Assembly (NCBI GenBank): GCA_965223325.1
Contig: CBDCWI010000001.1
Location: forward strand, 64,001 to 128,000
Length of the DNA stretch: 64,000 bases
From: Candidatus Multivoradales bacterium
GTDB lineage: Bacteria > Acidobacteriota > Thermoanaerobaculia > Multivoradales > Multivoraceae
Reading direction: 5' to 3'
Shown here: positions 9,682 to 38,351 of the stretch, one piece after another
Numbering within the stretch: the stretch's first letter is position 1
How the letters are laid out: each line of letters begins with the position of its first letter
Made by a program: the position numbers and the translations under genes
Notes under the pieces: model-generated
The model's database searches: none
Seen by the model: only the letters and a program-made list of their open reading frames with translations
Told to the model about the DNA's origin: nothing

Positions 9682-10115
9682 TCGCCAGGCCCCGTTTCCG
9701 CAGCCCCTGGCACCCCGGCAGCACCGCACATCGCCAGGCCCCGTTTCCGCAGTCCCTGGCACCCCGGCAGCACCTCGACGTCGTAGCCGCTGCCGCAAGC
9801 CAGCAGTCGCCACACCCGCGCTGCCGGGACGCTCCCTCAGCCCCCGCACAACGCCGTTTCCGCAGCCCCTGGCACCCGCTTCCGCAGTCCCTGGCACCGC
9901 TGCCGCGATCCAGTCCCTGGCACCCCGGCAGCACCTCGACGTCGTAGCCGCTGCCGCAAGCCAGCAGTCGCCACACCCGCGCTGCCGGGACGCTCCCTCA
10001 GCCCCCGCACAACGCCGTTTCCGCAGCCCCTGGCACCCGCTTCCGCAGTCCCTGGCACCGCTGCCGCGATCCAGAAGTCGCCACCCGCGCTGCGGACCGC
10101 TCCCTCAGCCCCTAG
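9682..10115 (+). repeat. Intergenic mosaic array with 7 head-to-tail REP-like copies, including an exact 161-bp tandem duplication and a repeat with 49-bp period
   Basis: CAG(T/C)CCCTGGCACC at 9701, 9750, 9863, 9885, 9911, 10024 and 10046. Segment 9750-9910 equals 9911-10071, and 9682-9725 recurs at 9731. Confidence 0.92.
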
Positions 10116-10129
10116 CCGAGCGCTGTTTC

Positions 10130-11956
10130 CTACCCGAAGGCAAGTAACCAGAGGCCAGAATGATCCCGAAGCAGCCGCATGCGGTGGTACTGGAGAGTCT
10201 GCGCTTCGCTGAACTCTGCATCTTCGAGTGCACTGCCGATGAAGTGAGAGAACCGATGCTGGAAGAGGTCTGCCAGGCGAACTGTCGCGCGGGCGCGCTC
10301 GAAAACCGATTGATCCAGGTGGACGCCCTGGTCGACCAGACCGACGATCTCCTCCGCCTCGGCACTGATGCGCATCCTGATCGCCGCCACTTCGAGCAGG
10401 AACTGCTCGAGATCGCCGCCCTGGAAGGCAGGATGGTGGAGGCGCCTGAAGGCCACCACGTCACGCGGCATCAGCCGCAGGCGACGTACCTCTGGCGTAG
10501 CGCATACGAGGCTCGGCGCTGAATCCCAGTCGGTGTCGTCGAGCAGCTGCAGAATGACCCGCAGGGAGTCGCCGAGCACCTCGGCATAGCGAGTTCGAAT
10601 ACGGAGCTTCTCGACCGGCCGATCCCCCCCGATATAGAGCGAGTCGGCGTGCCGGGCGATTTCCCCGGACGGAAGCGGAGACGAGGCACCGGTTGGGATG
10701 GCCGGCAATGAGCCCATGCCGGTGATCGACCGGCTGGCCGTCTCTTCGCGGCCCCTCGACGGCGCGGCATCGTCTTCGCCCCATGGTTCTTCGGGCGACT
10801 GGGTCGCGGGCGGTGCTGGGTCAGGCTGATGATCGAGGCCCTGGCTTTCCTGGAGTTCGAGGAACTCGTTCGCGGGATTGACCGGGTCCTTCGCGGTGCT
10901 GTCGAGGTTGAACCCCGGCACCCTGGTTGAGTCGACGGCCGTTTGCTCGCCTGTGACGGTCGCACCCGTGCGCCGCAGCCGCGGAATCAGGTCGCGCACG
11001 CGGTTGCGAATGAAGGCGAGTTCTTCGAGCCGGACGTTGTTGTTGCCCAGGTGATCCTCGAAACGCTCGATCTCGTCGCGGAAGCGCTGGAGGTCCTCGT
11101 CGAGAGCACGATCAAGTGAGGGCGCACCGCGCTCCAACTCGAACACTTCTTGATACTCGGCAGCGATCCTACGCTCTTCACTCTGGTAGAGCGTGGCGAC
11201 CTTCTCCCGGAAACGCAGGTTCGCCTCGATGACACGCTGGGCGACCTCGGGGACGAGCATGTTCGGCCCCAGGGCGCGTTTCAGGCTGCGGTACTCATCG
11301 ACCAACTGACACTCGTTAAGTTCGTCGAGAGTCTGGATCTCGCGAAGACGTCGGCTGATCGACTCGACCTGTTCGCGGTGCTCGAGAAGCGACTCTTCCG
11401 GTGGAAGCTCCCGCCCGGTCAAGGCCCAGAGGCCCCGCAGCGCATCGCGCAGCTGACTGGGATCGCGCTCGAGGAGCGCGACGCTCTCCTCGCGCATCTC
11501 TTCACCAAACTTGGTCAAAAGGAAGTCAACCTTGTCGAGGCGCTCCTGCCCTTCCTCGTTGCCTTCGGAGAGGACGTCGTGGTGCACATAGAAGCGGAGA
11601 ATCTGCACCAGAATCTTGCGATCGTAGTGCTGCACGCGACCAAAGAAGTTGCGCAAAAGGCCAGCACCTACTCTGCTATCTTCCTCGAGCAGAGCCTCAT
11701 CCCTGACATTCAGAGTGGTCTCGATTCGACTCAACTCACCCTCGACCTGGTCCGTGCTGGTGGTATCGAGGTTGCGCGACACGGCCTTGAGACCGTGGTA
11801 GAGCATCTTGAAGTCCAGTTCCTTCTGCCCCACCGGGGCCTGAGGAAAGACCTTGTGGATACCTTCGAGGAACTGGCGAAACGTCCAAGACGCCTTGAAT
11901 CGGTCTGAGAGCTGGATGTAGCGCCGATGCAGGCGACTGAGATCGTGAACCGTCAT
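10130..11956 (-). CDS. Hypothetical alpha-helical protein (~608 aa) with a central low-complexity linker
   Basis: Long ORF with host-like codon use. Likely start MTVHDLSRL at 11956. No motif recognised. Confidence 0.8.
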   Translation of the reverse strand: MTVHDLSRLHRRYIQLSDRFKASWTFRQFLEGIHKVFPQAPVGQKELDFKMLYHGLKAVSRNLDTTSTDQVEGELSRIETTLNVRDEALLEEDSRVGAGLLRNFFGRVQHYDRKILVQILRFYVHHDVLSEGNEEGQERLDKVDFLLTKFGEEMREESVALLERDPSQLRDALRGLWALTGRELPPEESLLEHREQVESISRRLREIQTLDELNECQLVDEYRSLKRALGPNMLVPEVAQRVIEANLRFREKVATLYQSEERRIAAEYQEVFELERGAPSLDRALDEDLQRFRDEIERFEDHLGNNNVRLEELAFIRNRVRDLIPRLRRTGATVTGEQTAVDSTRVPGFNLDSTAKDPVNPANEFLELQESQGLDHQPDPAPPATQSPEEPWGEDDAAPSRGREETASRSITGMGSLPAIPTGASSPLPSGEIARHADSLYIGGDRPVEKLRIRTRYAEVLGDSLRVILQLLDDTDWDSAPSLVCATPEVRRLRLMPRDVVAFRRLHHPAFQGGDLEQFLLEVAAIRMRISAEAEEIVGLVDQGVHLDQSVFERARATVRLADLFQHRFSHFIGSALEDAEFSEAQTLQYHRMRLLRDHSGLWLLAFG

Positions 11957-12015
11957 CGATCGATACCCGTGAAGTACCGGCAACCAGCAGAACGTAGGCA
12001 AATCGAGCAGCGAAC

Positions 12016-12558
12016 ATGACCACACCCACGGCCCAGGAACTCCCCGCCCAGCCGCCCGAACTCATCGGCGAGGTGGCGCTGCAGAAGCGCATCGCCGAAC
12101 TCGCCGGAGAGATAACCGCTGACTACCGGCATGCCGAAGAGTTCCTTTGCATCGGTATTCTCAAGGGTTCAGTGTTCTTCATGGTGGATCTTCTAAAGCA
12201 GGTCCCGCTCGACCTCGCTCTCGACTTCTTTCAGACCTCGAGCTACCGCTCGGGCAAGGTTCCCGGAGAGGTCCGGATTCGCAAAGATGTCGACTTCTCG
12301 GTCAGGGGTCGTGACGTTCTCCTGGTCGAGGACATCGTCGACACGGGCCACACCCTGAAGACCGTCATGGCGCTACTCGAGTTTCGCGGCGCCCGCTCGG
12401 TGAAGCTGTGTACGTTGTTGGACAAGACGGCTGCTCGGGAGGTAGAAGTGCCGATTCACTACACGGGGTTCGAAATCGAGAATCGGTTCGTGGTGGGGTA
12501 CGGGCTGGACTACGACGAGCGCTACCGGAACCTCCCCTACATCGGAGTTCTGGACTGA
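12016..12558 (+). CDS. hpt: Hypoxanthine phosphoribosyltransferase
   Basis: ILKGS, PRPP loop VLLVEDIVDTGHT, and FVVGYGLDYDERYRNLPYIG. Confidence 0.96.
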   Translation: MTTPTAQELPAQPPELIGEVALQKRIAELAGEITADYRHAEEFLCIGILKGSVFFMVDLLKQVPLDLALDFFQTSSYRSGKVPGEVRIRKDVDFSVRGRDVLLVEDIVDTGHTLKTVMALLEFRGARSVKLCTLLDKTAAREVEVPIHYTGFEIENRFVVGYGLDYDERYRNLPYIGVLD

Positions 12559-12780
12559 GGGATGCGCCAGACTCTTCGCCTCCGGCACGTTCAACCGAAG
12601 GCCAGACAGTCGAGAGAGGGCGAGAGCACGCCTTGGGCGAATGCCCGAGGGTGGGACCGGCTCTTCGCCGGTTTCTCGGAATTCTATGCAATAAAGTGAC
12701 TTGCGGTCCACCAGAGTCGTTTCGGCTGCGGTCTTACTCCCCAGGCGGTCCACCCCCGCCCGCCGCGCTCCCGCGGCGCG

Positions 12781-12821
12781 ACTACCGCGGTGCCGCTACT
12801 ACCGCGGTGCCAGGGACTCCG
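12781..12821 (-). repeat. REP-like copy within a 17-bp partial tandem duplication, between convergent genes
   Basis: ACTACCGCGGTGCC occurs at 12781 and 12798; the second continues as GGTGCCAGGGACTCC. Confidence 0.75.
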
Positions 12822-12849
12822 GCGAGCGCGTTGGACGGGTGCCGCCGCC

Positions 12850-13617
12850 TCAGCCGGGCGGCTCGGCGTCCTCCGGGGTAGCGGCGGGCGGCCGCTCCCA
12901 GACTGCGGGGAGAACCGGCCGTCCGGTCAGGTTCTCGACCAACATGAAGATCAGGTCGTCCTCGCCCGTTCCCAGTTGCCTGGTCAGCTCTGCGATGACT
13001 CCCTCGAGGCCTCGCACGAGGTCGGCGAACCCAAAGCGCCACGCTCCGTTTTCGTAACGGAAGCGATACTCCAGTCCTTCGACCGCTGCAGGCGCAGCCA
13101 CCGAGTCGTTGGGCGCCGTCGACCCCGTCATCGCTGGGGCGGAGGCGACCGTCCCCTCGACAGTGACCGCGCCCATCTCGAGCCGATCGACACTGGCCGC
13201 CGCAACCCATCCGGAGGCGATCGCCGTCTCAAGGAGGCCTGAGAGCTCCATCGATGAAATCTTCGCGGCGTCAATCTCGTGGCGAAGGCTCACCACCAGC
13301 AGCCGCTCTATGAAGGACCGCTCGCGGAGGGTCGCTGCGTCGGCCTCGAGCGCCAGCGTTCGTAGTTCGTGCCAGTAGTCGTGGGTCGCTTGGTCGACCA
13401 GAGCCGCCGCGGTGGTGGAATCCCCCTCCGACAAGGCGGTGCGATAGGCCTCGAACACCTGTCGGATCGCCTGCAAGCTCTCGGCGCCGGGCGTCCCAGG
13501 TTGGCCGGGAGTTGGCACAGACTCAGTCGCCTGCGCCTGGAGACACGGCCCTGCGGCGGCCGCCATCAGGGCGACCGCGCCCACGATTGTTGCCCGGACA
13601 GAACCAGTACGTCTCAC
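12850..13617 (-). CDS. Secreted hypothetical protein (possibly NTF2-like/DUF4878-like)
   Basis: Signal-peptide-like N-terminus; GTG start overlaps the upstream stop; AIRQVFEAYRTAL...GD and FRYENGAWRF pattern. Confidence 0.65.
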   Translation of the reverse strand: MRRTGSVRATIVGAVALMAAAAGPCLQAQATESVPTPGQPGTPGAESLQAIRQVFEAYRTALSEGDSTTAAALVDQATHDYWHELRTLALEADAATLRERSFIERLLVVSLRHEIDAAKISSMELSGLLETAIASGWVAAASVDRLEMGAVTVEGTVASAPAMTGSTAPNDSVAAPAAVEGLEYRFRYENGAWRFGFADLVRGLEGVIAELTRQLGTGEDDLIFMLVENLTGRPVLPAVWERPPAATPEDAEPPG

Positions 13618-14204: not shown

Positions 14205-14249
14205 CTGGTGAACCTCCTTGGGTGGTGCAAGCCTAGGAATCTTGGCACC

Positions 14250-15779
14250 TCACGGCAGGGCCAGGGTCTTTCGCACCAGCTCCAGAGCTTCCTCGCCAGC
14301 CACCGGGGCACCCGCCATGCAGGCTTCACGGTCTTCGATCAAACCACACCGAACGGCAGCGGCGCAGGCGGTGGAGCTCGTCACTGCCCCGGTGCCAGGC
14401 ACGTCGGCAGAACAGGAACCGCGACCAAATCGCTGGTCCAGCCGCAGGAGACCGGCGAACAGGTGGCCGCGATTGGTCTTACGCTCCGGATCGAAGCGGT
14501 TGAGGGTCGAGTCCGTCAAGTCCATGAGACCCAGGTTCAGCACCTTGACGATCTCTCGGTTCCGTGGGTGGTCCAGAACGTCCGAGGCAATCCGCCCAGA
14601 TCCGGTGGCGGCGCTCCGTACGCTCGGGACCGTCCAGTAAAACAGCGTCGCCAGGTCACCACGCTCGAGTTCAGGTTTGGCGACCACATCCTGTACATAC
14701 TTAGGCAGGTTCTCGAGACGCCAACGAAAGGTCGCCGCTGCGAGTCGATCGGGGAGGTCCGGGTCCTCCGGGTACTGCCTGACCAACTGGCGATAGATAT
14801 CGAGGCCTAGATGAGCCTCCCCCACGGCGACCTCGAGCTCCGCGCGACGTTCCAAATCCCCGCGCTCCAGGGTCGTACGCTCCGCGAGCTGCCTGAGAAG
14901 CTCGAGCTCGCTCTGCCGATCGCCCGAAGACGAAGCGAGCAGGCGCTCTGCAGCGAGCGTCCGGTCTGAGCCCGGCCTCCACTCTCGCAGAAGCGCAAAC
15001 TGATCGAGGGCTCTCTCCCGCTCGTCGCGCGCCAAGGCGTCCTCGAAAGCCAATTCGACCTGAGTGAGCGCCGCTTCTTCCAGGCCTGCGGCTCGAGACT
15101 GGGCGTCGCTCGAGCGTTCGCCGGCGTTTCGAAAAGCACGGTAGGCCACGACCACGTCGTTCTCGAGGTCAGCTGCCCTTCCGAGCGCCAGCTGGCCGGC
15201 GAAGTAGTCGGGGACTCCTTCGAGATCGAGGCCTCGGAGCCGTTCCAGAGCGAGCTGACTCTGACCATGGACGAGATCGATCTGTGCGAGCAACACGGCC
15301 GCCGGGGTGAGGCCCTGGTTACGACGGAGTAGGGCTTCAGCAGAGCTACGTGCTACCTCGGGAAGACCGTCGTCCGAGAAGGCTCGCCAGGCACGCTGGA
15401 GCTCCAGGCGCTCATCGGTCGCCGTGGGTCCGAGCCAGCCTTCGAGGGGTGACCGGATCCAAGTGAGCGCAGCGGTTTCGAGACCTGGGTCTGGCCCGGC
15501 GCTACTCGACGCACATCCCACCAGAAACGCCAACGCCAGCGTGGCAGGCCCTGCGAGCCGCAGTGTGCTGAACAACAGCGTCGACAACGTGCCATGCACC
15601 ACCGACTGAGTGCCAGGCACTACGGCAGCACGGCGGCGAGCCGCGGTGCCAGGGACTCCGGAGACCCCTCCAGGGGACACTCCGCGAGTGCCCAGGACTT
15701 CGATCGACCCGTGGCGACGGCGTCGGGCGACCGGAGGGCGCCCGATTCTCTTCATGAACGCGTGCGCGTTCCCGGTCAC
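14250..15779 (-). CDS. TPR-like lipoprotein with a C-terminal SLH-like domain (start uncertain, may be near 15600)
   Basis: Lipobox FLVGC, helical TPR-like repeats, and SLH-like SDVLDHP...LNLGLM...FDPERKTNRG. Confidence 0.65.
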   Translation of the reverse strand: MTGNAHAFMKRIGRPPVARRRRHGSIEVLGTRGVSPGGVSGVPGTAARRRAAVVPGTQSVVHGTLSTLLFSTLRLAGPATLALAFLVGCASSSAGPDPGLETAALTWIRSPLEGWLGPTATDERLELQRAWRAFSDDGLPEVARSSAEALLRRNQGLTPAAVLLAQIDLVHGQSQLALERLRGLDLEGVPDYFAGQLALGRAADLENDVVVAYRAFRNAGERSSDAQSRAAGLEEAALTQVELAFEDALARDERERALDQFALLREWRPGSDRTLAAERLLASSSGDRQSELELLRQLAERTTLERGDLERRAELEVAVGEAHLGLDIYRQLVRQYPEDPDLPDRLAAATFRWRLENLPKYVQDVVAKPELERGDLATLFYWTVPSVRSAATGSGRIASDVLDHPRNREIVKVLNLGLMDLTDSTLNRFDPERKTNRGHLFAGLLRLDQRFGRGSCSADVPGTGAVTSSTACAAAVRCGLIEDREACMAGAPVAGEEALELVRKTLALP

Positions 15780-16012: not shown

Positions 16013-17058
16013 GAGCCCCCCCTAGCAAGGGATGAAAATAGATTAGCGATACGAAGTGCTGCCGAAGAGGCCGTGCGGGAATCGAACCAGGTGATGTCTC
16101 GCTCGCGACGAAACCACGTCTCCTGACGCTTTGCATACCTTCGAGTCGCCTTGACGGTTTCCGACACTGCCCGTGCGAGGTCGATTTCACCTCGTACGTG
16201 CATCGCCAGTTCGCGATACCCGATTGCCTGAAAGCTCACCGGCACCGCCTGCGCGTCGAGCATGGGGCCCGGCACGCCCAGCGAGGACGACGTCTGCGCG
16301 CCTCGCCCCCTGGCACCCCGGGGGTACCGGTCGAGCACGCGACGGACCTCGTCGAGCCAACCCTCAGAAAGCATTCGCTCTATCCGCAAGGAAATCGCAT
16401 CGTACAGGACCGCTCTCGGGAGGGTCAATCCAATCCGAAGCACCGGTAGCGGGGGGCCTGAAGGATGCCGGCGATGCCACTCGGAGATCGCGACTCCAGA
16501 TTGAGCCAACACTTCGGTCGCCCGAAGGATCCGCTGTGTGTCCCCCGCCTCGAGCCGCGACGCAGTCTCCGGGTCGTGCTCGATGAGCTCTCGATAGAGG
16601 ACAGCCAGCCCTTCCTGCTCGCAGCGTGCCGCCACCCTTTCCCGCACCCTCTGCTCCACCTTGGGGACCACGGTCAGCCCCTCGAAGAGTGCGCGGAGGT
16701 AGAGGCCGCTGCCACCGACGACGATCGGCACGCGACCGCGACCGGCGATTTCGCGCACCACTGGGCGAGCTCGCCGCGAGAACTCGCCCGCCGACCAGGC
16801 CTCATCGACATCGAGGAAGTCGAAGAGATGGTGCGGCACCATCGCTCGCTCGGCCGCACTGGGCTTGGCCGTTCCCACTTCCAGTTCACGGTAGACTTGT
16901 AGGGCATCACCGTTGACGATTTCTCCGCCGAGCCTTTTCGCCAAGATGACTCCAAGCGCGCTCTTGCCGGTTGCCGTCGGTCCCAGAATCGCCAGACAAG
17001 GAGGACCCGTCCACGGGTCGTCGGGAGGTGTCACGGTCTCGGGGTCGTTCATGGACAT
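16009..17058 (-). CDS. miaA: tRNA dimethylallyltransferase
   Basis: GPTATGKS, DALQVYR, GTAKPS, VGGSGLY, QAIGYRE and TRRYAKRQETWFR. Confidence 0.96.
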   Translation of the reverse strand: MSMNDPETVTPPDDPWTGPPCLAILGPTATGKSALGVILAKRLGGEIVNGDALQVYRELEVGTAKPSAAERAMVPHHLFDFLDVDEAWSAGEFSRRARPVVREIAGRGRVPIVVGGSGLYLRALFEGLTVVPKVEQRVRERVAARCEQEGLAVLYRELIEHDPETASRLEAGDTQRILRATEVLAQSGVAISEWHRRHPSGPPLPVLRIGLTLPRAVLYDAISLRIERMLSEGWLDEVRRVLDRYPRGARGRGAQTSSSLGVPGPMLDAQAVPVSFQAIGYRELAMHVRGEIDLARAVSETVKATRRYAKRQETWFRRERDITWFDSRTASSAALRIANLFSSLARGGS

Positions 17059-19698: not shown

Positions 19699-20397
19699 CT
19701 AAGAAAAGACCGAAAAGCGGGGCAAGCCCAGATGCGCGCGCAGAGTCTGATCGAACAGGCGAGAGCGGGCCTTTCCAAGCTCGTCGGATGACAGGCGTGT
19801 GGCCACTCGCTCGAGCGCCCTTTCGACGCTCGCCTCGATGGCGGCGCGCTCGGCGAGTTCGAGCCGCTTCTCGGCGTCACGCAGAATGTCCCTGCCGACC
19901 TGCTGTAACGCCTGTTCGACCTCCTCGGGCGACGGGAGTTGTTCGAGGGCGAGGATCTTGTCGTACCAGGTGGCGCGGTGCCAAAGTTCACTGGGCAGTA
20001 GGGAGGCAATCCTGGCGAGGGTGTTGGCCAAATCCATCCGGGGAACTGCAACCGGCGGGCGCGTATTGGCTGCACCCAATTCGCGCATTTCGGCCCAGGC
20101 CTTGCGAACCGCCCCATCGACGTATTGCAACGACGACACAGAAGCCGTCGCACCGCGCTCGGCGCGGCGCTCGAAGACGTCACGCAAGGTCGATTCGATC
20201 AGCTCGAGGTCGATTCCGTCGGCATGCCAGGCTTCTGCGACAACCCAATCTCGCGGCGACAGCAGCATGGGCTTGCCGCGGAGTGCCAGAAAACACTCCT
20301 CGATCCGTTGAAAGAACCACATCGACTCGTCTTCGGACGATCGTTTCTGCATGAAGGCGTTGGACTTCTTGGGCGTGTCGGTCTTGCGTTGGGTCAA
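19699..20397 (-). CDS. Hypothetical protein with a DnaD/DnaB_2-like N-terminal helical domain
   Basis: TTG start overlaps the birA stop. Pattern LLSPRDW...W...GIDLELI...SLQYVDGAVRKAW. Confidence 0.7.
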   Translation of the reverse strand: MTQRKTDTPKKSNAFMQKRSSEDESMWFFQRIEECFLALRGKPMLLSPRDWVVAEAWHADGIDLELIESTLRDVFERRAERGATASVSSLQYVDGAVRKAWAEMRELGAANTRPPVAVPRMDLANTLARIASLLPSELWHRATWYDKILALEQLPSPEEVEQALQQVGRDILRDAEKRLELAERAAIEASVERALERVATRLSSDELGKARSRLFDQTLRAHLGLPRFSVFS

Positions 20398-21242
20398 GGG
20401 CTCTTCCGGTCGTCGCTGCTGATCTCTGGCGGCGGAAACTCCAGCGATTCACCGGAACTGATCACACGATCGCGCCCGGCCTCGAGTAGGAGGAGGTGAC
20501 CCTCGTCGGTCACGCCTTGAAAGGTACCCTCGACCACTTCGTCTGGGAGTCGAATGCGCATGGGTTCTCCTGGTTCGTGGGTTACCAGCTGGCGATAGCG
20601 CGCCACGCCGCTGGGTCCGAGGTCATCGGTCGCCTCAAGCACCGCGGTGGCGAGGCTTTCAAGAAGACGAACCCGGGCCTGCGCTCCGCGGACAGATGTC
20701 GCACCCAGGAGCCTGAGCGAGATCGCCGAGGGTAGCGGAAGCTGAGTCGCCTGGTGGGCAACGTTAATGCCAAAACCGATCACGAGCCCGGTCTTGTCAG
20801 ATGCAGCCAGGGCCTCGATGAGGATTCCGCCGAGTTTTCGGCCGCGGCACATCAGGTCGTTGGGCCACTTGAGGCGCACGTCATCGTCGGGCGCGACCTT
20901 CGAGAGCTCGTCAGCCAACGCCACCGCTACCCGAACCGGCAAACCCGCAAGCCCCCGGCGTGCCAGGGACCGCGTCATAACAATCGATGCGTATATGCCC
21001 AGACCCGCATCGCTACACCAGCTGTTGCCCCTACGACCGCGTGCACCGGTCTGTTCGTGGGCAACCAGAAGAGACGGCTGCGCTGGTGCCTCGTCACGAA
21101 ACGCCTGTGCCAGGACGAATCGCCCCAGGTCGTTCGTCGAACCAATCGTTTCGAGCCCTACCAGGTTGAAGTCCATCGACGACTCGTAGAGCGCGTCGCA
21201 AAGCCCACTCCAGGGTGGCGCCCAGGCCTGGGGGTCATCCAT
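20394..21242 (-). CDS. birA: Biotin--protein ligase (no N-terminal HTH)
   Basis: STN, QTGARGRRGNSW, LKWPNDL, KLGGILIE and GFGINV. Confidence 0.93.
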   Translation of the reverse strand: MDDPQAWAPPWSGLCDALYESSMDFNLVGLETIGSTNDLGRFVLAQAFRDEAPAQPSLLVAHEQTGARGRRGNSWCSDAGLGIYASIVMTRSLARRGLAGLPVRVAVALADELSKVAPDDDVRLKWPNDLMCRGRKLGGILIEALAASDKTGLVIGFGINVAHQATQLPLPSAISLRLLGATSVRGAQARVRLLESLATAVLEATDDLGPSGVARYRQLVTHEPGEPMRIRLPDEVVEGTFQGVTDEGHLLLLEAGRDRVISSGESLEFPPPEISSDDRKSP

Positions 21243-21275
21243 ACATCCAGCTTACCGGCCCACCGTCCACTGCCA

Positions 21276-21292
21276 CCGCGGTACCTGGCACC
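21276..21292 (+). repeat. REP-like copy upstream of the RAYT-like gene
   Basis: CCGCGGTACCTGGCACC. Confidence 0.7.
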
Positions 21293-21423
21293 ACGGGAAA
21301 CCACCTCGCGGACACTCCGGTCCCCTTCGGTCCCTCCCTGGGCCAGCACGATCTTTGCCAGCAAGGGTTCGCCACCGATCTGCGTCTCCAAGTAGGAGAG
21401 AACAACGACACAAGGGGAGCACC

Positions 21424-22431
21424 TTGCCTAGACAACCTCGAATCGTTCACCCCGGCCACCTGGTCGAGGCCACTAGTCGTACCGTTCAGTCCCGATTCCT
21501 GCTTACCCCAAGCAGGGAGTTCAACGAGCTCGCGACGGGCTCGGTGATCCACGCCGCTGAACTGACCGGTATGCCAGTATGCGCAGTCGTCTTCATGTCC
21601 AACCACTTCCACGCCCTCACCCGGCCCGAGAACGAAGATCAGCTGGCCGACTTCTACGGCTGCTTGAAGAGCCGTATTGCGAGGCTTGTTCAGGTACGAA
21701 CCGGCTGGGAGGGCAGCGTGTTCGCGAGGCGCTACGACGACATCACGGTCACCCTGGAGCCGGAAGCCGAGCTCGAACGCCTGTACTACCTGCTAAGCCA
21801 CGGCGTGAAAGAAGGCCTGGTTCGCAAGGCTGGCGAGTGGCCGGGCATCAACACTGTCAAGGCTCTGTGCTCGGGATCGAACCTGTTAAAAGGCAAGATC
21901 GTCGATCGACGCGCGTTCTACGAGGCCATGCGGAAATGGAACAGATCCAAGGATAGACTCAAGAAAGACCGACCCAGCGTCTCCGACTTCACCATTCCCA
22001 AGTCGCTCGAGCTCGCGCCTCTCCCATCGCAGGATCACCTGACCCACGAACAGAGGTCGGCGCAAGCGCGGGCCATTCTCGATCGAATCCACGAACGCTG
22101 GGCTGAGACGCGCAAGGGGGTCAGCGCATCGTCCCGACGACGAATCCTCCTCCAGAGCCACCTGTCTTCCCCGAGCAAAGAAAGCGCTAAGAAGAGGAAG
22201 AGGAAAAAGAAGCCTCGGGTTCACGCCGCGAGTCGCTCGGCCCGCGTTCAGTTCTGCGAAAGCATGGACGCCCTTCTCTCGGCGTACCGTCGATCATCGG
22301 CGCTCTGGAGGAACGGGGATCTGGAAGGTGTGCGCCTTTGCCCGGCGGGGATGTTCCTCCCCGGATGGCGGTCACTAACGACGGAAAGGCGCGCCGCGGT
22401 CCTGCTTCAGGTGGCGGCCAATCCGGGCTAG
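21424..22431 (+). mobile_element. Y1 HUH transposase, REP-associated tyrosine transposase (RAYT)/IS200-like, with a long basic C-terminal extension
   Basis: TTG start after the RBS AAGGGGAG gives MPRQPR. HUH motif MSNHFH, GSVFARRY, and a putative catalytic Tyr in YYLLSHGVKEGLV...EWPG. It lies on the opposite strand to valS and birA and is flanked by repeat copies. Confidence 0.85.
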
Positions 22432-22695
22432 TTTTGGCACGGCCACCGACACCGACCTCGAGCACCAGTCCCCACAGAGCCAGCTTTGCCCTAAGGCTGG
22501 CTGGTTGCCAAGCCTCAGTGCTCGAACGACAGGATCCCCCGGTTCCCAGGGACCCGTGTGTCCAGGTGTCGTGCTCGCCGGCGGTTTCCGGTCGTACTTG
22601 GCACCTTCGCCCTAGCGGAGCCGCCGTAACCTGACCTGAACGTGGTCAAGGGGCTCCTGCCTTTGGCGACGCCGACTCGGAAGCCACCGGGAAAG

Positions 22696-22763
22696 CCGCG
22701 ATGCCTGGCACTATCGGTGGTGGTGGTGGTGGTGGCACGATCGGTGGTGGTGGTGGTGGTGGT
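22696..22763 (+). repeat. REP-like copy downstream of the RAYT-like gene, fused to a 27-bp duplication containing (GGT)n
   Basis: CCGCGATGCCTGGCAC at 22696-22711. TGGCAC(T/G)ATC(GGT)5GG at 22706-22732 and 22733-22759. Confidence 0.75.
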
Positions 22764-22769: not shown

Positions 22770-25415
22770 TTAGGTCGCTAGGTCGGCGGCGAGCCGGGAA
22801 CGTCGCTCTTCTAACTCGGCGAGGCGCGCGCGGTTGCCTTCGACCACCTTGGCCGGCGCTTGTTCGACGAACTTGGGGTTCGCCAAGCGCTTTCTCGCAC
22901 CCGCAATCTCGCCATCGATCTTCGCCAACTCCTTCTCGAGCCGCTCGCGATCGACTTGAGACTGTTCGGGAGCCTCGAACACGGCCGCTAGCTCGACGCC
23001 GGCCACCAGGTCGCGACTTGCGTCGGGCGGCGCCGTTCCCGAGTTGACACTGCGAGTTCGTGCCAGAAAGCCGACCAGGGTTCGATGGTCGAGGACAGCC
23101 TTTGTGGCCACGATGTCACCGCCTTCCAGGACCACATCGATAGGCACGGACGACTTGAGACCGCGTTCCTTGCGAAGAGTGCGGAGGTGGCTGATGACTC
23201 CGATGAGCGCCACGATCTCGGCCTCGGCCTCGGGATCGTGCCAGCGGTCGCCGTCGGTGGGCCATTGGGCGAGTGCCAGGGACTCCGGCGCGATGGACTC
23301 GATGCCGGGCAGGCGATGCCACACCTCCTCGGTCAAGTGCGGCATGACGGGATGCAACAACCGAAGGCTTCGATCGAGCACCAGCAGGAGCGTCTCGCCA
23401 ACCAGTGGTCGCGGCGACCCACCACCGAGGGCAGGCTTGGTCAGCTCGATGTACCAATCGCATAGCTCATGCCAGAAGAAGTGGTAGAGCCGGTTACACG
23501 CTTCATCGAATCGAAACGCCTCCAGCTGCTCGGTGACCTCGACTTCGGTACGCCCAAGTCGCGACAAGATCCAACGCTCGGGCGCCGCCAGCCCAGCGGC
23601 GTCGATCTCTTCGTGCACCGTTGCATCGATGCGAGACAGGGCAAAACGGGTCGCATTCCAGATCTTGTTGCCAAACGCCCTGTATCCCGCGACGCGTTCG
23701 GGGTCGAGCGGAATGTCGCGCCCCGGTACGTCGAGAATGGCAAGGGTAAAACGCACCGCGTCGGCGCCGTACTCGTCGATCAGGTCGCGCGGGTCGACAA
23801 CGTTGCCCTTCGTTTTCGACATCTTTTCGCCGTTCTCATCGCGCACCAGGCCCGTGAGATGCACCTTCGAGAACGGCACCTCGTCCTTGAAATGAAGGCT
23901 CATCATCACCATCCGCGCGACCCAGAAGAACAGAATGTCGAAACCGGTGACGAGAACGTCGGTCGGAAAGAAGGTGCGAAGATCATCGCTCTCCTCGGGC
24001 CATCCGAGGGTCGACATCGGCCACAGGCCAGACGAGAACCAGGTATCGAGAACATCTGGATCTTGTTCGAGGTCGGTGGTACCGGCTGCCGCTTCGGCCT
24101 CCCCCCGGCTCCGTGCCACGAAGCAGTTCCCGTCCCGGTCGTACCAGGCTGGAATTCGGTGACCCCACCACAGCTGCCTCGAAACCACCCACGGGCGGAT
24201 GTTCTCGAGCCAATGAGCCCAGGTCTTGTTCCAGCTGGCGGGAATGAGCTCGAGCTCGCCACTGTCGACGACCTCGAGCGACCGTTTCGCCATTTCAGAC
24301 ACATCGACAAACCATTGCATCGACACCATGGGCTCGACGGGTTCACCGCCCCGTTGGCTGTGGCCTACGGCGTGGCTGTGCCCCTCCACCTTCACCAGAA
24401 GATCGGCGGCCTCTAGCCGCTCGAGAACCTTGGTGCGCGCCTCGAAGCGGTCGAGACCTTCGAAGTCAGCGCCCGCCTCAGCGGTCATGCAACCATCGAA
24501 CCCGATGACTCGGATCCCCTCGAGGTCGTGACGGCCGGCCATCTCGAAGTCGTTCGGGTCATGCCACGGTGTGATCTTGACCAGGCCAGTTCCGAACTCC
24601 GGGTCGACGTAGGAGTCTTCAATGATCGGGATCAAGCGGCCCACGATGGGCAGCCGAACAGTCTTGCCGCGCAGGTGCTGATAGCGCTCGTCTTCAGGAT
24701 GCATCGCCACGGCCATGTCGCCAAGCATCGTTTCTGGACGCGTTGTTGCGACCACCAGGCGCTCATCACTGTCTTCGACCGGGTATGCGAGGTGATAGAG
24801 CTGCCCCTCCACCGTGCGCGCCTCGACCTCGAGGTCTGAAATCGCCGTCTGCAAAACCGGCGACCAATTGACCATGTATTCGCCGCGCGTCACCAACCCC
24901 TCTTCCCACAACCGCACAAACGCCTCACGCACCGCCTTCGACATGCCTTCATCAAGGGTGAAGCGTTCGCGCGACCAGTCGCAGCTGGCTCCCATGATCT
25001 CGAGCTGATCCCGAATGTTCGATTGGTACAGCTCTTTCCACTCCCACACGCGACGCTCGAATTCCTCGCGCCCCAGGGCCTGCCGACTCGTACCCTCGGT
25101 CGCCAACTGCCGCTCAACCATCAGCTGGGTCGCGATCCCGGCGTGATCCGTACCGGGGAGCCACAGCGCGTTGCGCCCCTGCATCCGCCGCCATCGAACC
25201 AGCAGGTCTTGCAGCGTGCTTTGAAGCGCATGACCCATGTGCAGTTTCCCGGTCACGTTGGGCGGCGGAATCATGATCGACCACGGTTCGCTTTCGCCGA
25301 CCCGTTCACCGCTCGTTGCCTCGAAGAGATCACGCTTGCGCCAGAACTCTTGCCATCGCGACTCGAAGGACGATGGGTCGAACTGTTTTTCCATCTCGAT
25401 CTTGCGGTCACTCAT
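22770..25415 (-). CDS. valS: Valine--tRNA ligase
   Basis: PPPNVTGKLHMGH (HIGH-type), DHAGIATQ, SRQLWWGHRIP, KMSKTKGN and a C-terminal coiled coil. Confidence 0.97.
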   Translation of the reverse strand: MSDRKIEMEKQFDPSSFESRWQEFWRKRDLFEATSGERVGESEPWSIMIPPPNVTGKLHMGHALQSTLQDLLVRWRRMQGRNALWLPGTDHAGIATQLMVERQLATEGTSRQALGREEFERRVWEWKELYQSNIRDQLEIMGASCDWSRERFTLDEGMSKAVREAFVRLWEEGLVTRGEYMVNWSPVLQTAISDLEVEARTVEGQLYHLAYPVEDSDERLVVATTRPETMLGDMAVAMHPEDERYQHLRGKTVRLPIVGRLIPIIEDSYVDPEFGTGLVKITPWHDPNDFEMAGRHDLEGIRVIGFDGCMTAEAGADFEGLDRFEARTKVLERLEAADLLVKVEGHSHAVGHSQRGGEPVEPMVSMQWFVDVSEMAKRSLEVVDSGELELIPASWNKTWAHWLENIRPWVVSRQLWWGHRIPAWYDRDGNCFVARSRGEAEAAAGTTDLEQDPDVLDTWFSSGLWPMSTLGWPEESDDLRTFFPTDVLVTGFDILFFWVARMVMMSLHFKDEVPFSKVHLTGLVRDENGEKMSKTKGNVVDPRDLIDEYGADAVRFTLAILDVPGRDIPLDPERVAGYRAFGNKIWNATRFALSRIDATVHEEIDAAGLAAPERWILSRLGRTEVEVTEQLEAFRFDEACNRLYHFFWHELCDWYIELTKPALGGGSPRPLVGETLLLVLDRSLRLLHPVMPHLTEEVWHRLPGIESIAPESLALAQWPTDGDRWHDPEAEAEIVALIGVISHLRTLRKERGLKSSVPIDVVLEGGDIVATKAVLDHRTLVGFLARTRSVNSGTAPPDASRDLVAGVELAAVFEAPEQSQVDRERLEKELAKIDGEIAGARKRLANPKFVEQAPAKVVEGNRARLAELEERRSRLAADLAT

Positions 25416-26377: not shown

Positions 26378-27304
26378 TCAGTCCCGCCGCCGATCCAGAA
26401 ACCGACGCAGCCATCGCCTGGGCTCGCCAGTCTGATAGCTCTCTCCGAAGGCGCTGATACCTGCCTGGACGGCCGCCGGCGACGGTTCGTCTTCCCAGGT
26501 GGCACAGAGGGCCTTCTGCCTTCTCAGAGCGCCGGGCGCGGACTCGAGAAGACCCAGAATGCGCCTTTCGACCTCTTCGTCGAGCTCGCGGGCGGGGACC
26601 ACGTAGTCCACCACAGACCAGCTCAGTGCTTCCCGGCCGTCCAGAATGCGGCCGGTCAGCACCAGATCACGCGCCCTCCCCGTTCCTACCAGTGCTGGCA
26701 GGCGGGCCGCCTCGATCACCGAAGGCACCCCCACCTTGACCTCTGGCATACCAAACCGTGCGTCCTCGCTCGCCAGTCGCAGGTCACAGCACGCGGCAAC
26801 CTCGAGACCGGCCCCGTAGCAGTGGCTTTCGATCTTCGCGAGGACGACCGCCGGGAGCTGGCGAAGCGCCTCACAGAGGCGATGAAGCCGAGTGATGAAC
26901 GCCACCGCTCCCGGCGCGTCGAGTTCCGCCAGTTCGTAGAGATCAGCGCCACCAATCCAGCTGCGCTCGCTGCCTTCGAGCACCAGGGCCCTGGCAGCCT
27001 CGTCGCGGGCAACGTGCTCGAGCGCAAAGAGCAATCCGTCAACCGTGTGGCTGTCGAGCGCGTTGAGGCGTTCCTCCCGCCGAATCTGCAGGTAGTAGAC
27101 GTGGGCTGGGTCGCCGAGTGCGTCTGCCCTGGGCTCGCAACGCAGATCGATCTCATCGGGAGTCCCGGGTACGACGCCGCCTGCCGCGGTGCCAGGGACT
27201 GCGGAGGTGGGTGAGACGGGGGCTGCGGATGCTCCTCCGGCGGGGCGTTCCGAGGTGCCAGGGACTGCGGCAGGGCGCTCTGGGGGGTCGTCGGCGGGGG
27301 TCAT
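26378..27304 (-). CDS. Enoyl-CoA hydratase/isomerase with a repeat-derived N-terminal extension
   Basis: LNAL, GGADL, GAGLEVAACCDLRLAS and FGMPEVKVG. The ATG overlaps the ybjQ-family stop (ATGA 27301-27304). Confidence 0.92.
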   Translation of the reverse strand: MTPADDPPERPAAVPGTSERPAGGASAAPVSPTSAVPGTAAGGVVPGTPDEIDLRCEPRADALGDPAHVYYLQIRREERLNALDSHTVDGLLFALEHVARDEAARALVLEGSERSWIGGADLYELAELDAPGAVAFITRLHRLCEALRQLPAVVLAKIESHCYGAGLEVAACCDLRLASEDARFGMPEVKVGVPSVIEAARLPALVGTGRARDLVLTGRILDGREALSWSVVDYVVPARELDEEVERRILGLLESAPGALRRQKALCATWEDEPSPAAVQAGISAFGESYQTGEPRRWLRRFLDRRRD

Positions 27305-32826: not shown

Positions 32827-32898
32827 GTCGTAGATTCCAGAGTGAGTTTGGTGGACCACCGGCGGCCCGCGGCAAGATCAGCGTCGGCCCGAGCCGGC

Positions 32899-32937: not shown

Positions 32938-32979
32938 CTTGAGCCGTCCGGCTCCCGATGCAGGAGGCACAGGCCTGAA

Positions 32980-34827
32980 ATGAAAGACCTCACCAGCACT
33001 ACGGTCGAGCGCTATCAGATCGTCGAACAACTCGGCGGTGGCGGAATGGCCAACGTCTACAAGGCTTTCCATCCGGACCTCGAGGTCCACCATGCCCTCA
33101 AGGTGATCCGCCCCGAGCTCGTCGAAGTCACCGGCTTCAAGGAGCGGTTCCAGCGCGAGGCGCGGGCGATCGCCGGCCTGCGGCACCCGAACATTGTCGG
33201 AATCCACCACTCCGGCCAGCACAACGACCTCTTCTTCATGGCGATGGAGTTTGTCGAGGGCGAAGACCTCAAGGCGTTGATCGAGCGTGAAGGGCCGGTG
33301 CGGCCCTTCACGCGGGCGGTCGATCTCATCGACCAGATCGGCGACGCCCTCGACTACGCCCATCAGAAGGGGGTCGTGCACCGTGACATCAAGCCCGCCA
33401 ACATCCTCCTGACCCACGACGGGCAGCCCATCGTCACCGACTTCGGCATCGCGCGCATGGTGGAAAGCGACGAGAAACTCACCCAGACCGGCGTCGGCAT
33501 TGGCACCCCTGCGTACATGGCACCCGAGCAGGCGATGGGCGAGGTCACACCGGGACCGTCCGTCGACCTCTACTCCCTGGGCGTCCTCCTCTACGTCATG
33601 TTGACTGGTGAAGCACCGTTCAAAGCGGATACGCCCCTGGCGGTCCTTTACCGCGTCATCAACGATCCGATCCCGGCACCCCAGTCGTTCTCGCCAGACA
33701 TTCCACAGGCTCTGCAAGACGTCGTCATGAAGGCAATGTCGAAGGACCCCGCTCTGCGCTACCCCACCGGCAAGGCGTTCGCCGAGGCCGCCCGCCGCAG
33801 CCTCGGCGCCGACTCCACGGCGACAGCCGAAACCACGGTCGCCGCGCCTGCGACCGTCCAGGTCGCCGGTGGCCGAGCGGCGAGCACAACGACTGCCGCG
33901 GCGGCGCCCCTGCCGCCGGTACCCCCGCCATCGACGGCTCCTGGAACCAACCCGCCGTTTCCCGACCGCGGTGCCACGAGTCCATCGGCCGAGGCCAGGG
34001 GTTCGAAAGCACCATGGATCGTGCTCGGCCTGATGGCGCTCCTCGTCCTCGGCGGCCTGGCGACCGCAGTCGGCCTGGCCGCATGGTGGCTGCGCAGCAA
34101 CGATCGGGCGCCCTCGGCAGCGGAAACCGAGTCGATCGCCGCCACCGAGACCCCAGGCCGGCCCGCCTCGGAACCTCCCGCTCGTTCGGCAGACGTCTCG
34201 ACCGATACGGCGGAGCTGTCTGCCGGAGTATCTGCCGAAGTACCTGGCACCGGGTCAGACCCCCGGGCGGGCGGGCCTTCTACCGCCTCCGCAGATCCCC
34301 GCGGAGTGCCCTCGGGAGAATCTTCCGCAGTCCCTGGCACCCCGGCGACTGGAGAATCTTCCGCAGTCCCTGGCACCCCGGCGACTGGCAACGAGGCGAC
34401 CGGAACAGCGGCGCGGCCACTGGCTGCACCCGCCGAGGCCATGGCCGGAGCGCAGCCTCCTCCCGCAGCGACCGGTTCCGCAGTACCTGGCACCGTGGTT
34501 GAGGGTGCGCCGGGGGAGTTGAACGAGCGGCTGATCGACGGTGGCTCGCTGGGATGGGGTCAATCGGTGTCGGACCGACTCGAACCCGACGAGGAGATCG
34601 CCTATGACCTGGACGTCCGCCGTCGAACGGTCGGCTATTTCGATATAGAAACAGCCAATCGACGCGCGCGCTACACACTGTACTCCCCGAGTGGCGAGCA
34701 GGTCTTCGACCAGTTGGGGGCTGATTTCGGACCGATGACGCTCGAGCCCGGCGTCTACCGTCTCGTCGTCTCGCCACAGGACAACCTGCCGCTGACCTTC
34801 CAGTTCCAGTTCCGCCCGATTGGTTGA
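32980..34827 (+). CDS. Membrane Hanks-type Ser/Thr kinase with a low-complexity linker and a C-terminal beta domain
   Basis: GGGGMANVY, HRDIKPAN, DFG, GTPAYMAPE and one TM. RBS AGGAGG upstream. Confidence 0.93.
   Translation: MKDLTSTTVERYQIVEQLGGGGMANVYKAFHPDLEVHHALKVIRPELVEVTGFKERFQREARAIAGLRHPNIVGIHHSGQHNDLFFMAMEFVEGEDLKALIEREGPVRPFTRAVDLIDQIGDALDYAHQKGVVHRDIKPANILLTHDGQPIVTDFGIARMVESDEKLTQTGVGIGTPAYMAPEQAMGEVTPGPSVDLYSLGVLLYVMLTGEAPFKADTPLAVLYRVINDPIPAPQSFSPDIPQALQDVVMKAMSKDPALRYPTGKAFAEAARRSLGADSTATAETTVAAPATVQVAGGRAASTTTAAAAPLPPVPPPSTAPGTNPPFPDRGATSPSAEARGSKAPWIVLGLMALLVLGGLATAVGLAAWWLRSNDRAPSAAETESIAATETPGRPASEPPARSADVSTDTAELSAGVSAEVPGTGSDPRAGGPSTASADPRGVPSGESSAVPGTPATGESSAVPGTPATGNEATGTAARPLAAPAEAMAGAQPPPAATGSAVPGTVVEGAPGELNERLIDGGSLGWGQSVSDRLEPDEEIAYDLDVRRRTVGYFDIETANRRARYTLYSPSGEQVFDQLGADFGPMTLEPGVYRLVVSPQDNLPLTFQFQFRPIG
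34235..34494 (+). repeat. Four in-frame REP-like copies inside the kinase, including a 36-bp tandem duplication
   Basis: Copies at 34235, 34323, 34359 and 34476. Segment 34315-34350 equals 34351-34386 (GESSAVPGTPAT twice). Confidence 0.9.
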
Positions 34828-34853
34828 TCACTCGCAGGGGCCGGGAAACCCTC

Positions 34854-36254: not shown

Positions 36255-36311
36255 CGCGGCGAGTGTACAGAAGGAGGCTCCTCTGTTCGCCTCCTTCAGG
36301 CTGCTTTGACC

Positions 36312-37943
36312 CTAAGGCGCTTTTACGACCGAGAAGAAGTGGCGCGCCTGGCCTCCCTGACCGTAGTTCGATACGTAAAGACGCACAAAGCCACCCGACT
36401 CGACCTCGGCAACCGCTGCCTCGAAGTCGTCGGCATCGTCGATCGGCGTGCCGTTGACTTCCGAGATCACCATGCCCGGTTGCACTCGCTCTTCCCACAG
36501 CGGGCTACGGGCGGTCACATCGGTCACCACCACTCCCCGCGCGTCGCGCGGCAGACGGAACATCTGGCGGGTGTCGCCGCCGACGGTCTCATAGTCGACG
36601 CCAAGCCACTCCAACGAGCTGTCTTCCTCTTCCTCGTCCTCGGGAAGCTGGGCGATCTGGTTGGGATCTGGACGCTCTTCCAACTTGACCTTGCGCTCGA
36701 TCTGCTCGCCGTTGCGGAAGAGATCGAGCGTCACCGTCGTCCCGACCGGCTTTCGGGACACGTACTGAATCAAGTCACGCGTTTCATCGACCTCTCGACC
36801 GTCCACGGCAACGATGATGTCTCCATGTTCGAGGCCGGCCTTGGCGGCCGGCGTGTCGGGCGACACGTTGGTCACGATGGCACCACTCGTGCCGCTGTCC
36901 AGGCCAAACGCCTCGGCGTCATCCTCATCGAGGTTCTCGATGAAGACACCCAGGTAGCCCCGCCGCACTCGACCGTCTTCCTTGAGCTGCGGAAGGATGT
37001 CCTTGAGGGTATCGACCGGAACGGCAAAGCCGATGTTTTCGGCTCCGAAGTTCATGGCCGTAGCGATGCCAATGACCTCACCGCGAACGTTCACCAAAGG
37101 CCCGCCGGAGTTCCCTCGGTTGATCGCCGCATCGGTTTGGATGAAGTTCTCGAAGGAGGCATCGGTGATGCCGATCGTGCGACCCTTGCCGCTGACGATG
37201 CCAACGGTGACCGACGAAATCTGCCGGAGCGGATTGCCCGCCGCCATCACCCACTCGCCAACCCGCAACTCTTCGCTGTTTCCGAGGCGCAGAAAGGGCA
37301 GCTCTCGGTCGAGATCGACTTTCAAGACGGCGAGGTCGGTCGACGGATCGACACCTCGTACCTCGGCTTCGTACTCTTCTTCCTGCAGCGTCACCACCAC
37401 TTCCGAGGCGCCGTCGATGACGTGATTGTTGGTCACGATCCACCCGTCGGCCGACACCACGAAGCCGCTGCCTGCACCGTCTGAACGGTCTTCACGCGGA
37501 TCTTCCCCCGGTTCACGCCCTGGGCGCCTGAACGGCAGATCGAACGGCAAACCGCGACGCGGGCTCTCGGTCTCGAACGTCGTCGCCTGCACCAGCACGA
37601 CGGAAGGCAGAATCGCGTCTGCAAGATCAGCGAACGTTGTAATCGAGGCCTGCGCGTCGAGGGCACCACGCGCGCCATCAACCGCCGGAACCATCTCGTT
37701 CGACCCCTCGGTTTGCGGGCTACCAAGAGCCAGGGGCGACAGGTTCAACCCCCCGGCCAGGACCATGCCAAACACCGTCGCACCGAAGGCGACGGCCAGA
37801 ACCAGGGGCATCACCGCGAGCGAACTCCTCGATGCCTCGAGGTTCTTCGCCGGCTCCGACGGCTCGTCGAACTGCGAAGGATCCTGTGAGGGACCGTGCA
37901 GTGGAGCGTTCAGGGGTTCGTGGTTCGAAGAGCGATGTTCCAT
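36312..37943 (-). CDS. HtrA/DegP-family serine protease with two PDZ domains
   Basis: GSGFVV, TNNHV, DLAVLK, QTDAAINRGNSGGPL, two PDZ domains and an N-terminal TM. Confidence 0.94.
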   Translation of the reverse strand: MEHRSSNHEPLNAPLHGPSQDPSQFDEPSEPAKNLEASRSSLAVMPLVLAVAFGATVFGMVLAGGLNLSPLALGSPQTEGSNEMVPAVDGARGALDAQASITTFADLADAILPSVVLVQATTFETESPRRGLPFDLPFRRPGREPGEDPREDRSDGAGSGFVVSADGWIVTNNHVIDGASEVVVTLQEEEYEAEVRGVDPSTDLAVLKVDLDRELPFLRLGNSEELRVGEWVMAAGNPLRQISSVTVGIVSGKGRTIGITDASFENFIQTDAAINRGNSGGPLVNVRGEVIGIATAMNFGAENIGFAVPVDTLKDILPQLKEDGRVRRGYLGVFIENLDEDDAEAFGLDSGTSGAIVTNVSPDTPAAKAGLEHGDIIVAVDGREVDETRDLIQYVSRKPVGTTVTLDLFRNGEQIERKVKLEERPDPNQIAQLPEDEEEEDSSLEWLGVDYETVGGDTRQMFRLPRDARGVVVTDVTARSPLWEERVQPGMVISEVNGTPIDDADDFEAAVAEVESGGFVRLYVSNYGQGGQARHFFSVVKAP

Positions 37944-38269
37944 GGCGATGGGTTCTCCGGCAGGGCTAGGAAGCCTCGGGCGCGCGAGTGGGCCCGATGG
38001 TGAGTTGTTTCAAGGGTCGGTAGACGAGAGATCTGTCTGAGGAGGGTCCAACTGGCGCACCAGGTCGAGCCGTCGCTCTTGGACACCTACCAGCCAACGT
38101 ACCGGCACCGCTGTTTGTTCCGGCAAGATGCTCGCTGAAGACAGGTGCTCCTCGAGGTCACGACCCCGCCGCTCGACGGCGACGGCGGGGTTCCTGCCCG
38201 AGGACCTCCTCGGTTCCCGATGGTATCCGAGGAATGTGCTCCTCGACCGGCAAGCTCGGGTCGTCCGGC

Positions 38270-38351
38270 CAGACATCTGCCGCAGTCCCTGGCACCCCGT
38301 CAAGCAGCACCAGACGTCTGCCGCAGTCCCTGGCACCCCGTCAAGCAGCAC
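38270..38351 (+). repeat. 41-bp tandem duplication, each unit carrying a REP-like copy
   Basis: CAGAC(A/G)TCTGCCGCAGTCCCTGGCACCCCGTCAAGCAGCAC twice. Confidence 0.9.

Follow-up and report, generated by a model that had tools for sequence, protein, structure and literature searches.

A short repeat concentrated around a RAYT-like Y1-HUH transposase gene in a Multivoradales bacterium: a probable end sequence of a TIRYT-type family

A 64,000-nucleotide stretch of the genome of Candidatus Multivoradales bacterium (the window; positions 64,001 to 128,000 of contig CBDCWI010000001.1 in assembly GCA_965223325.1) contains a short, near-palindromic motif in many copies that crowd around a gene for a predicted Y1-HUH transposase at positions 21424-22431. 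The motif is probably the end sequence, about 25 nucleotides (nt) long, of a family of Y1-HUH genes that are flanked by terminal inverted repeats (TIRs) and resemble the genes of the RAYTs, the tyrosine transposases associated with repetitive extragenic palindromes (REPs); its 22 copies in 29 kb were likely made in cis by the gene 21424-22431. We infer that the enzyme made or maintains the copies. RAYT-like genes flanked by TIRs have been named TIRYTs and their loci TIRtrons (Di Nocera 2013; PMC3733652, accessible text), and the locus is a clear new example of that described, little-studied kind, not the distinct new system that a preliminary description of the stretch had proposed. The local halo of end repeats around the gene is possibly the new point.

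The repeat and its distribution

The preliminary description had reported a repeated motif, and the counts bear this out. The exact 14-mer CAGTCCCTGGCACC occurs ten times in the window and in none of 100 shuffled versions of it, the GTSCCWGGSAC core 16 times against 0.20 expected (the largest count in a shuffle was 2) and the 19-mer 16 times (0.04 expected) when up to three mismatches are allowed. The aligned copies define a weakly dyad-symmetric unit, cTTCCGCAGTCCCTGGCACCsCGGca, that is about 25 nt long; the reverse complement of the motif is GGTGCCAGGGACTGCGG. A weight matrix built from 26 copies genome-wide, with sites counted above 14 bits, recovered 22 of the 25 positions listed earlier. 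The other three differ in kind: the copy at 16305 is partial, a 15-mer identical to part of the copy at 9701; that at 22696 is weaker, a direct 14/16 match to the copy at 21276; and the site at 22594 has a degenerate core and nothing more. When six copies were folded as single-stranded DNA, the energies were -2.4 to -3.2 kcal/mol and the z-scores relative to shuffles -0.35 to +0.85, and no stable hairpin formed. The consensus has neither a GTAG tag, as was noted earlier, nor a CGTC tag, and the motif is free of stop codons in all six frames.

The genome comprises 6.69 Mb in two contigs, C1 and C2, the window being C1:64001-128000. Genome-wide there are 39 distinct sites above 14 bits, and 22 of these lie inside 28.7 kb centred on the Y1 gene. 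Among the 27 sites that exceed 20 bits, 20 are within 20 kb of the gene, where 0.17 would be expected if the sites were distributed uniformly. The other seven are found at C1 285-296 kb (four), C1 1.49 Mb (one) and C2 130-159 kb (two). The copies had been called dispersed: the exact 14-mer does recur across the genome, with 15 occurrences, yet ten of the 15 are in the window. The commonest 14-mers of the genome come from a repeat of about 23 nt, GTTTCAATGGTACGGGGTACTAG, with about 55-67 copies, and from GCGGCGCAAGCGGTCCGT, with about 50-69 copies; these are possibly a CRISPR array and another repeat family.

The motif is species-specific. In 40 relatives the 14-mer was absent from 38 and present once in each of two, it is absent from a genome of the same genus (G001), and a scan of species-representative genomes with the 19-mer returned ten single hits, all in unrelated taxa. 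The stretch is also represented, as contigs, in public reads from four runs of one study; these match it without differences and break at the repeats, and no RNA run is listed among those that contain it. One contig (run X4) skips one 161-nt unit, which may be an assembly collapse of a perfect repeat.

The Y1-HUH enzyme, its paralogues and its relatives

The reading frame at 21424-22431 is open, has a TTG start preceded by AAGGGGAG and specifies a product of 335 amino acids. The HUH histidines, H61 and H63, and Tyr122 are invariant in an alignment of 32 homologues. In a collection of 5.8 billion sequences the closest proteins are at most 39% identical to it; most of them carry PF01797 and those with names are called RayT or transposase. 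The profile of the 32-homologue alignment, compared with solved structures, matched ISDra2 TnpA (E 1.2e-6) and Escherichia coli TnpA-REP (E 0.009). An AlphaFold (AF2) model with a predicted local distance difference test score (pLDDT) of 91.1 has E. coli TnpA-REP (4ER8) as its best match among solved folds by VIA-align (Z 13.3, root-mean-square deviation 2.8, 156 of 165 residues); the next match has a Z of 7.7, the fold of IS608 TnpA matches at Z 7.7, and Foldseek likewise ranks 4ER8 top. Judged by this model the frame encodes an intact Y1-HUH enzyme whose predicted fold is nearest to that of a RAYT, in keeping with the HUH Y1 transposase gene first proposed. The profile searches that had been suggested gave a divided answer: fold and alignment profile are Y1- and RAYT-like, but the scores fall below the cut-offs of both NCBIfam NF047646 REP_Tyr_transpos (41.4 bits; cut-off 80) and Pfam Y1_Tnp (15 bits; cut-off 23). 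The tyrosine motif of the gene and its homologues reads Y-(L/I)-L-x-(H/Q)-G-x-K-E. The protein has about double the length of a RAYT and an extra C-terminal half, which has no match of its own in Pfam or in two whole-model fold searches, the half not having been searched alone.

The gene is absent from the birA-valS spacer of G001, which is shorter by about 1.39 kb, and no second copy exists in the genome at 85% nucleotide identity or more. As described earlier it is bracketed by motif copies (21276-21291 and 22696-22711), which are direct repeats of one another (14/16). A direct pair of end copies on one strand is the substrate geometry of IS200/IS605 enzymes. Among the 30 family genes this one stands out by the five TGGCAC cores in its flanks, the others having none or one.

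The genome also encodes 29 paralogues of the Y1 protein with 26-40% protein identity, the family proteins being about 315 amino acids long. Most of the paralogues belong to units of about 1.35-1.4 kb, each present 2 to 12 times, and they behave as insertion sequences (ISs); the difference of about 1.39 kb in the birA-valS spacer matches the size of these IS-like units. Clear TIRs of 20-60 bp (inverted pair score of at least 35) flank 24 of the 29 paralogues, and where a paralogue is multi-copy its inverted repeats belong to the unit that recurs and keep a constant distance from the gene. The end of each contig (C1:2125000-2144090 and C2:4455000-4487600) is packed with at least 16 copies of the Y1 family; this nest probably spans the assembly gap and supports a join between the C2 end and the C1 end. 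The end repeat of another Y1 group (GTCGGGGGGACTT...) forms small local clusters of solo copies at C2:2019323-2025633 and C2:1745304-1745586, away from the listed copies at element ends, and the behaviour is therefore not confined to the motif studied here.

The link between motif and enzyme comes from other genomes of the order. In 15 of 26 homologue loci the best inverted repeat that flanks the gene contains (G)GTGCCA, and in nine of those 15 the repeat reads GTGCCAGG, mostly followed by (C/T)GA(T/C)T. The core of these inverted repeats, GGTGCCAGG(C/T)GA, is the reverse complement of the motif. Because homologues elsewhere carry its reverse complement as their terminal inverted repeat, the motif is read as the cognate end sequence of this protein clade, and the association of motif and enzyme that had been suggested from one locus stands. 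A quick tree, used for the broad split only, puts this gene in a broad clade with GT(G/T/A)CC(A/G)GG ends, apart from a clade with CAGTCGGGGG ends, and end type follows the broad protein clade.

The local halo recurs in two other families of the order. The 14-mer GGTGCCAGGYGAYT is present in 66 copies alongside 12 genes in G032 and in 41 copies alongside eight genes in G392, and the reversed control pattern is not present at all. Within 20 kb of a gene lie 45 of the 66 copies in G032 (8.1 expected) and 18 of the 41 in G392 (2.2 expected), and many copies in both genomes form head-to-tail direct arrays with a spacing of 26-60 nt. Halos around family genes have in this way been seen in three genomes from three families. 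Abundance of the core also tracks the family, as the preliminary description had asked of relatives: in 80 further genomes of the order, at least ten copies of AGGTGCCASSYGA were found in 27 of the 56 that have the family (maximum 103) and in none of the 24 that lack it (maximum 7), the control pattern reaching a maximum of 9; these are counts only, the relatives not being independent. In five genomes (G433, G460, G476, G444 and G468) many full-length family genes have exactly one in-frame stop codon, TAG or TGA depending on the genome, a pattern that might reflect decay, or else read-through or recoding at a constant position.

Copies in the window and the same-genus genome

The copies in the window, together with the gene, are as follows.

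9677-10074, plus strand: array of seven copies, the 26-nt sites starting at 9695, 9744, 9857, 9879, 9905, 10018 and 10040
12800-12825, minus strand: single copy (30.7 bits) between convergent genes
14385-14410, minus strand: single copy (23.6 bits) within a gene without a Pfam match, reading VPGT
15603-15664, minus strand: two copies, 36 nt apart, in the spacer downstream of hfq, which is about 65 bp longer than the G001 spacer
16305-16320, plus strand: partial copy, antisense in miaA, inside an 18-amino-acid insertion absent from G001
20953-20978, minus strand: single copy (20.4 bits) inside birA
21273-21305, plus strand: copy CCGCGGTACCTGGCAC (18.6 bits) on the left flank of the Y1 gene, about 130 nt upstream
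21424-22431, plus strand: Y1-HUH gene (RAYT-like, TIRYT-type), 335 amino acids, TTG start, single-copy
22696-22762, plus strand: right-flank copy CCGCGATGCCTGGCAC, 265 nt past the stop codon of the Y1 gene
23266-23291, minus strand: copy in valS (20.6 bits), without insertion or deletion relative to G001
27182-27273, minus strand: two copies, 66 nt apart, that fall either within the first 44 codons (not conserved) of an enoyl-CoA hydratase gene or in the spacer that precedes it
34232-34500, plus strand: four in-frame copies in the extracellular low-complexity linker of a Ser/Thr kinase
38269-38351, plus strand: two copies, 41 nt apart, in the divergent spacer upstream of rimP-nusA-infB

Many of the copies belong to tandem direct repeats that have spacers of their own. 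Those in the window that contain copies are 49 nt x2, 161 nt x2.0 (100% identical), 22 nt x2.5, 36 nt x2.1 (100%) and 41 nt x2.0 (97%), so that the direct clustering reported before is seen as head-to-tail tandems with periods of 22-161 nt. The 49-nt and 161-nt duplications are both in the array at 9677-10074, which lies between two co-oriented minus-strand genes. The 161-nt duplication starts exactly at the CAG of one copy and ends at another CAG; these ends are compatible with a cut at CAG, and also with plain microhomology. The identity of the 14- to 19-mers and the 100% identical tandem units indicate recent copying and not convergent selection.

G001 has about 70% DNA identity with this genome, so that comparison with it is readable as length differences and protein insertions or deletions only. 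Several motif copies coincide with DNA that G001 does not have. The intergenic space that holds the array at 9677-10074 is about 450 bp longer than its G001 counterpart, the stretch with the copies at 27182-27273 is about 110 bp longer and the spacer with those at 38269-38351 about 560 bp longer. The intragenic copies of the preliminary description are real, four being in frame in the kinase linker and one lying in the miaA insertion. The kinase copies each read (A/E)VPGT and include the 36-nt x2.1 repeat (100%), and the frame remains open beyond them into a C-terminal domain with a positive coding score. The copy in valS may be a coding coincidence, since G001 already matches 11 of 13 core letters at the same codons.

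Other features of the window include a 27-nt x2.1 repeat at 22706-22762, made of the TGGCAC end of the motif and (GGT)n, which adjoins the valS stop codon; a reverse transcriptase gene (RVT_1, E 4.7e-39) at 74-1252 on the plus strand; and four conserved minus-strand genes (10130-11956, 12850-13584, 14250-15602 and 19699-20397) that have homologues in G001 and no Pfam family at E 0.001. Tandem repeats also occur in genes at 49492-49639 (a GC-rich array with periods of 9-57 nt) and at 61657-61735 (15 nt x4.6). A search of the window for known RNAs gave no Rfam match at gathering thresholds and no tRNA or tmRNA.

Known systems, alternatives and a proposed mechanism

The locus shares with TIRYTs and TIRtrons a RAYT-like Y1-HUH gene that has, at the level of the family, terminal inverted repeats in place of GTAG hairpins, and an end sequence that is also a repeat family (here, in G032 and in G392) of single, paired and grouped copies. 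In the accessible text of PMC3733652, TIR repeat families are moderately abundant and occur singly, as dimers or clustered, an acidobacterial group of enzymes is named, and only some of the genes have a repeat family; most TIRYTs belong to subclass 2.1 according to the portion available of Quentin 2018 (PMC6006769). The present locus departs from that description in that the flanking copies of this gene are direct, not inverted, and in that the motif lacks the GGGGWSAS sequence that the same text of PMC3733652 gives for many TIRs. For TIR repeats the text available of PMC3733652 does not mention a concentration over tens of kb near the gene, head-to-tail arrays of 22-31 nt or in-frame copies in genes, and the portion available of PMC6006769 does not describe a concentration of repeats around the gene.

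The resemblance to REP/RAYT systems lies in the enzyme, with a fold nearest to TnpA-REP (4ER8; PMC3479197, in part) and with the HUH motif and catalytic tyrosine present, and in a gene flanked by a short species-specific repeat that is far commoner than the gene itself (PMC2817692, in part), which here has no second copy, although there are 29 paralogues. The differences are numerous. The motif has no stable hairpin and no GTAG or CGTC tag; its approximately 39 sites lie mostly within 20 kb of the gene, and several are intragenic, whereas REPs number hundreds genome-wide and are extragenic; its arrays are direct and head-to-tail instead of inverted doublets. The curated RAYT model is not passed and the protein is about twice as long. 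The tyrosine motif is Y-L-L-x-(H/Q)-G, whereas class 2 has Y-x-x-x-N-P (Table 1 of PMC6006769, as available). In the available part of Bertels 2017 (PMC5581495) the commonest flanking 16-mer occurs about 5 times for housekeeping genes and 57-140 times for REP-associated RAYT groups; here it occurs 4 times. With no hairpin, sites mostly near the gene, flanks without an abundant 16-mer and a failed RAYT model, the motif is not, in the defined sense, the REP family that had been suggested. IS200/IS605 elements (IS608 and ISDra2; PDB 2VHG and 2XM3) have the same Y1-HUH core fold, and the paralogues here are multi-copy and IS-like. Those elements have subterminal hairpins and no terminal inverted repeats. 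Their proteins are of about 130-150 amino acids, with a Y-x-x-x-Q motif (PMC6006769, accessible part), whereas the family described here has inverted repeats of 20-60 bp, proteins of about 315 amino acids (335 for this one), a different tyrosine motif and an end motif without a hairpin.

Several observations weigh against the proposal that this gene made the copies from its own end. The copies that flank it are diverged variants and are direct, not inverted; the best inverted pair at the gene (26 nt, 73%) is weaker than an 11-nt exact inverted pair, and that pair was itself matched or beaten in 53 of 300 shuffles. No 16-mer in the flanks of the gene occurs more than four times genome-wide. The abundant variant CAGTCCCTGGCACC differs from the variant beside the gene, and because of this a lost sister element could be the source of the abundant variant. 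Seven strong copies are 45-210 kb or more from the gene, and tblastn with 30 family proteins detected no relics of family genes below E 0.1 at C1 280-300 kb or C2 125-165 kb. The branch of the Y1 protein is very long (1.45; median 0.098), the protein is at most 40% identical to any homologue, and its placement among the end-type clades is weak given the long branch and weak support. Lastly, the copies in birA, valS and the 14.4-kb gene show no insertion relative to G001, which does not fit simple pasting.

One alternative is that the halo records past positions of the element: a 1.4-kb unit would have moved by cut-and-paste over short distances and left one end copy at each former site. The gene is single-copy and the G001 counterpart of its spacer is about 1.39 kb shorter, which points to insertion as a unit, the halo is centred on the gene, and there are halos around the genes of G032 and G392 too. 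Yet to build arrays of up to seven like-oriented copies, with periods of 22-161 nt, the element would have had to return repeatedly to a single site in one orientation, and the solved Y1 relatives IS608 and ISDra2 excise without leaving footprints; we consider this history unlikely. Causality might also run the other way, with an independent host repeat family into or beside which Y1 elements preferentially insert, the gene being a visitor. The direct, diverged flanking copies and the insignificant inverted pairing at the gene would suit such a history, and elements that insert into REPs do exist, ISPpu9 being one according to the accessible account of it. Against this, the multi-copy paralogues have their inverted repeats inside the repeated unit, at a set spacing from the gene, the type of end goes with the broad protein clade in the quick tree, none of the 24 family-negative genomes has ten or more core copies and the motif is missing from G001, and we regard a visiting gene as quite improbable.

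The GTSCCWGGSAC core has dyad symmetry without hairpin stability, as might be expected if the near-palindrome were bound by a dimeric host protein with a role in organising or regulating this terminus-side part of the chromosome, much as at matS or parS clusters. Of the 27 strong copies, 26 are on the terminus side (C1 73-296 kb and C2 130-159 kb), the six remote ones there being intergenic by gene calling, and three intragenic copies are without an insertion or deletion. By GC skew and dnaA the origin is at C2 3.5 Mb, the skew switches near C2 340 kb, a second ParB-like gene is present at C2 362 kb, and a join of the two contigs in the way suggested by the skew would put the window roughly 400-470 kb from the terminus. 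This reading is nevertheless very hard to credit: systems of the matS and parS type are conserved, whereas G001 and 38 of 40 relatives lack the motif; the identity of 14- to 19-mers, and of tandem units at 100%, speaks for recent copying; and a transposase family has this core as its terminal repeat, the abundance of the core following the presence of the family. Centromere-like or terminus-domain sites were for these reasons rejected as the main explanation, and no comparable palindrome is present beside the second ParB gene. Sigma-54 promoters, whose -24 element is TGGCAC, were also rejected: a GC ten bases on is found only in the copies at 9.7 kb, not in those at 34.3 kb or 38.3 kb, and the largest array points against its flanking genes.

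We favour copying of the family's end sequence by the RAYT-like enzyme, and propose the following mechanism. The enzyme would bind the end sequence and use Tyr122 to nick one strand. Nearby copies would then be rejoined, or copied from one to another, giving head-to-tail amplification with periods of 22 to 161 nt, while short single strands bearing the end would be pasted into nearby DNA, preferentially near the site where the protein is produced, because the protein would act close to its site of synthesis. Copies whose length is a multiple of three would survive in tolerant coding regions, since the motif is without a stop codon in any frame. The specific form of the proposal, a cis halo, is tentative: copies of the 22-26 nt end of a RAYT-like Y1 element would be seeded by its own enzyme, for the most part no farther than about 20 kb from the gene, and would take the form of head-to-tail arrays and of in-frame insertions into host genes. 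If true, it would amount to an undescribed local mode of short-repeat birth, a snapshot of the start of a REP-type family before its spread through the genome.

The origin and spread of REP-type repeats are not yet settled, and only two papers of the literature searched mention RAYT relatives associated with TIRs. A family that is small and, to judge by its identical units, young, gathered around one intact gene, offers a tractable case in which to ask whether such an enzyme copies its own end and acts preferentially near its gene. Relative to G001 the copies add DNA to the genome: 18 residues in miaA, a 12-residue repeat in the kinase linker, what may be an N-terminal extension of the enoyl-CoA hydratase, and about 560 bp before rimP-nusA-infB. 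They are thus an evident contributor to variation in the proteins and spacers of this species.

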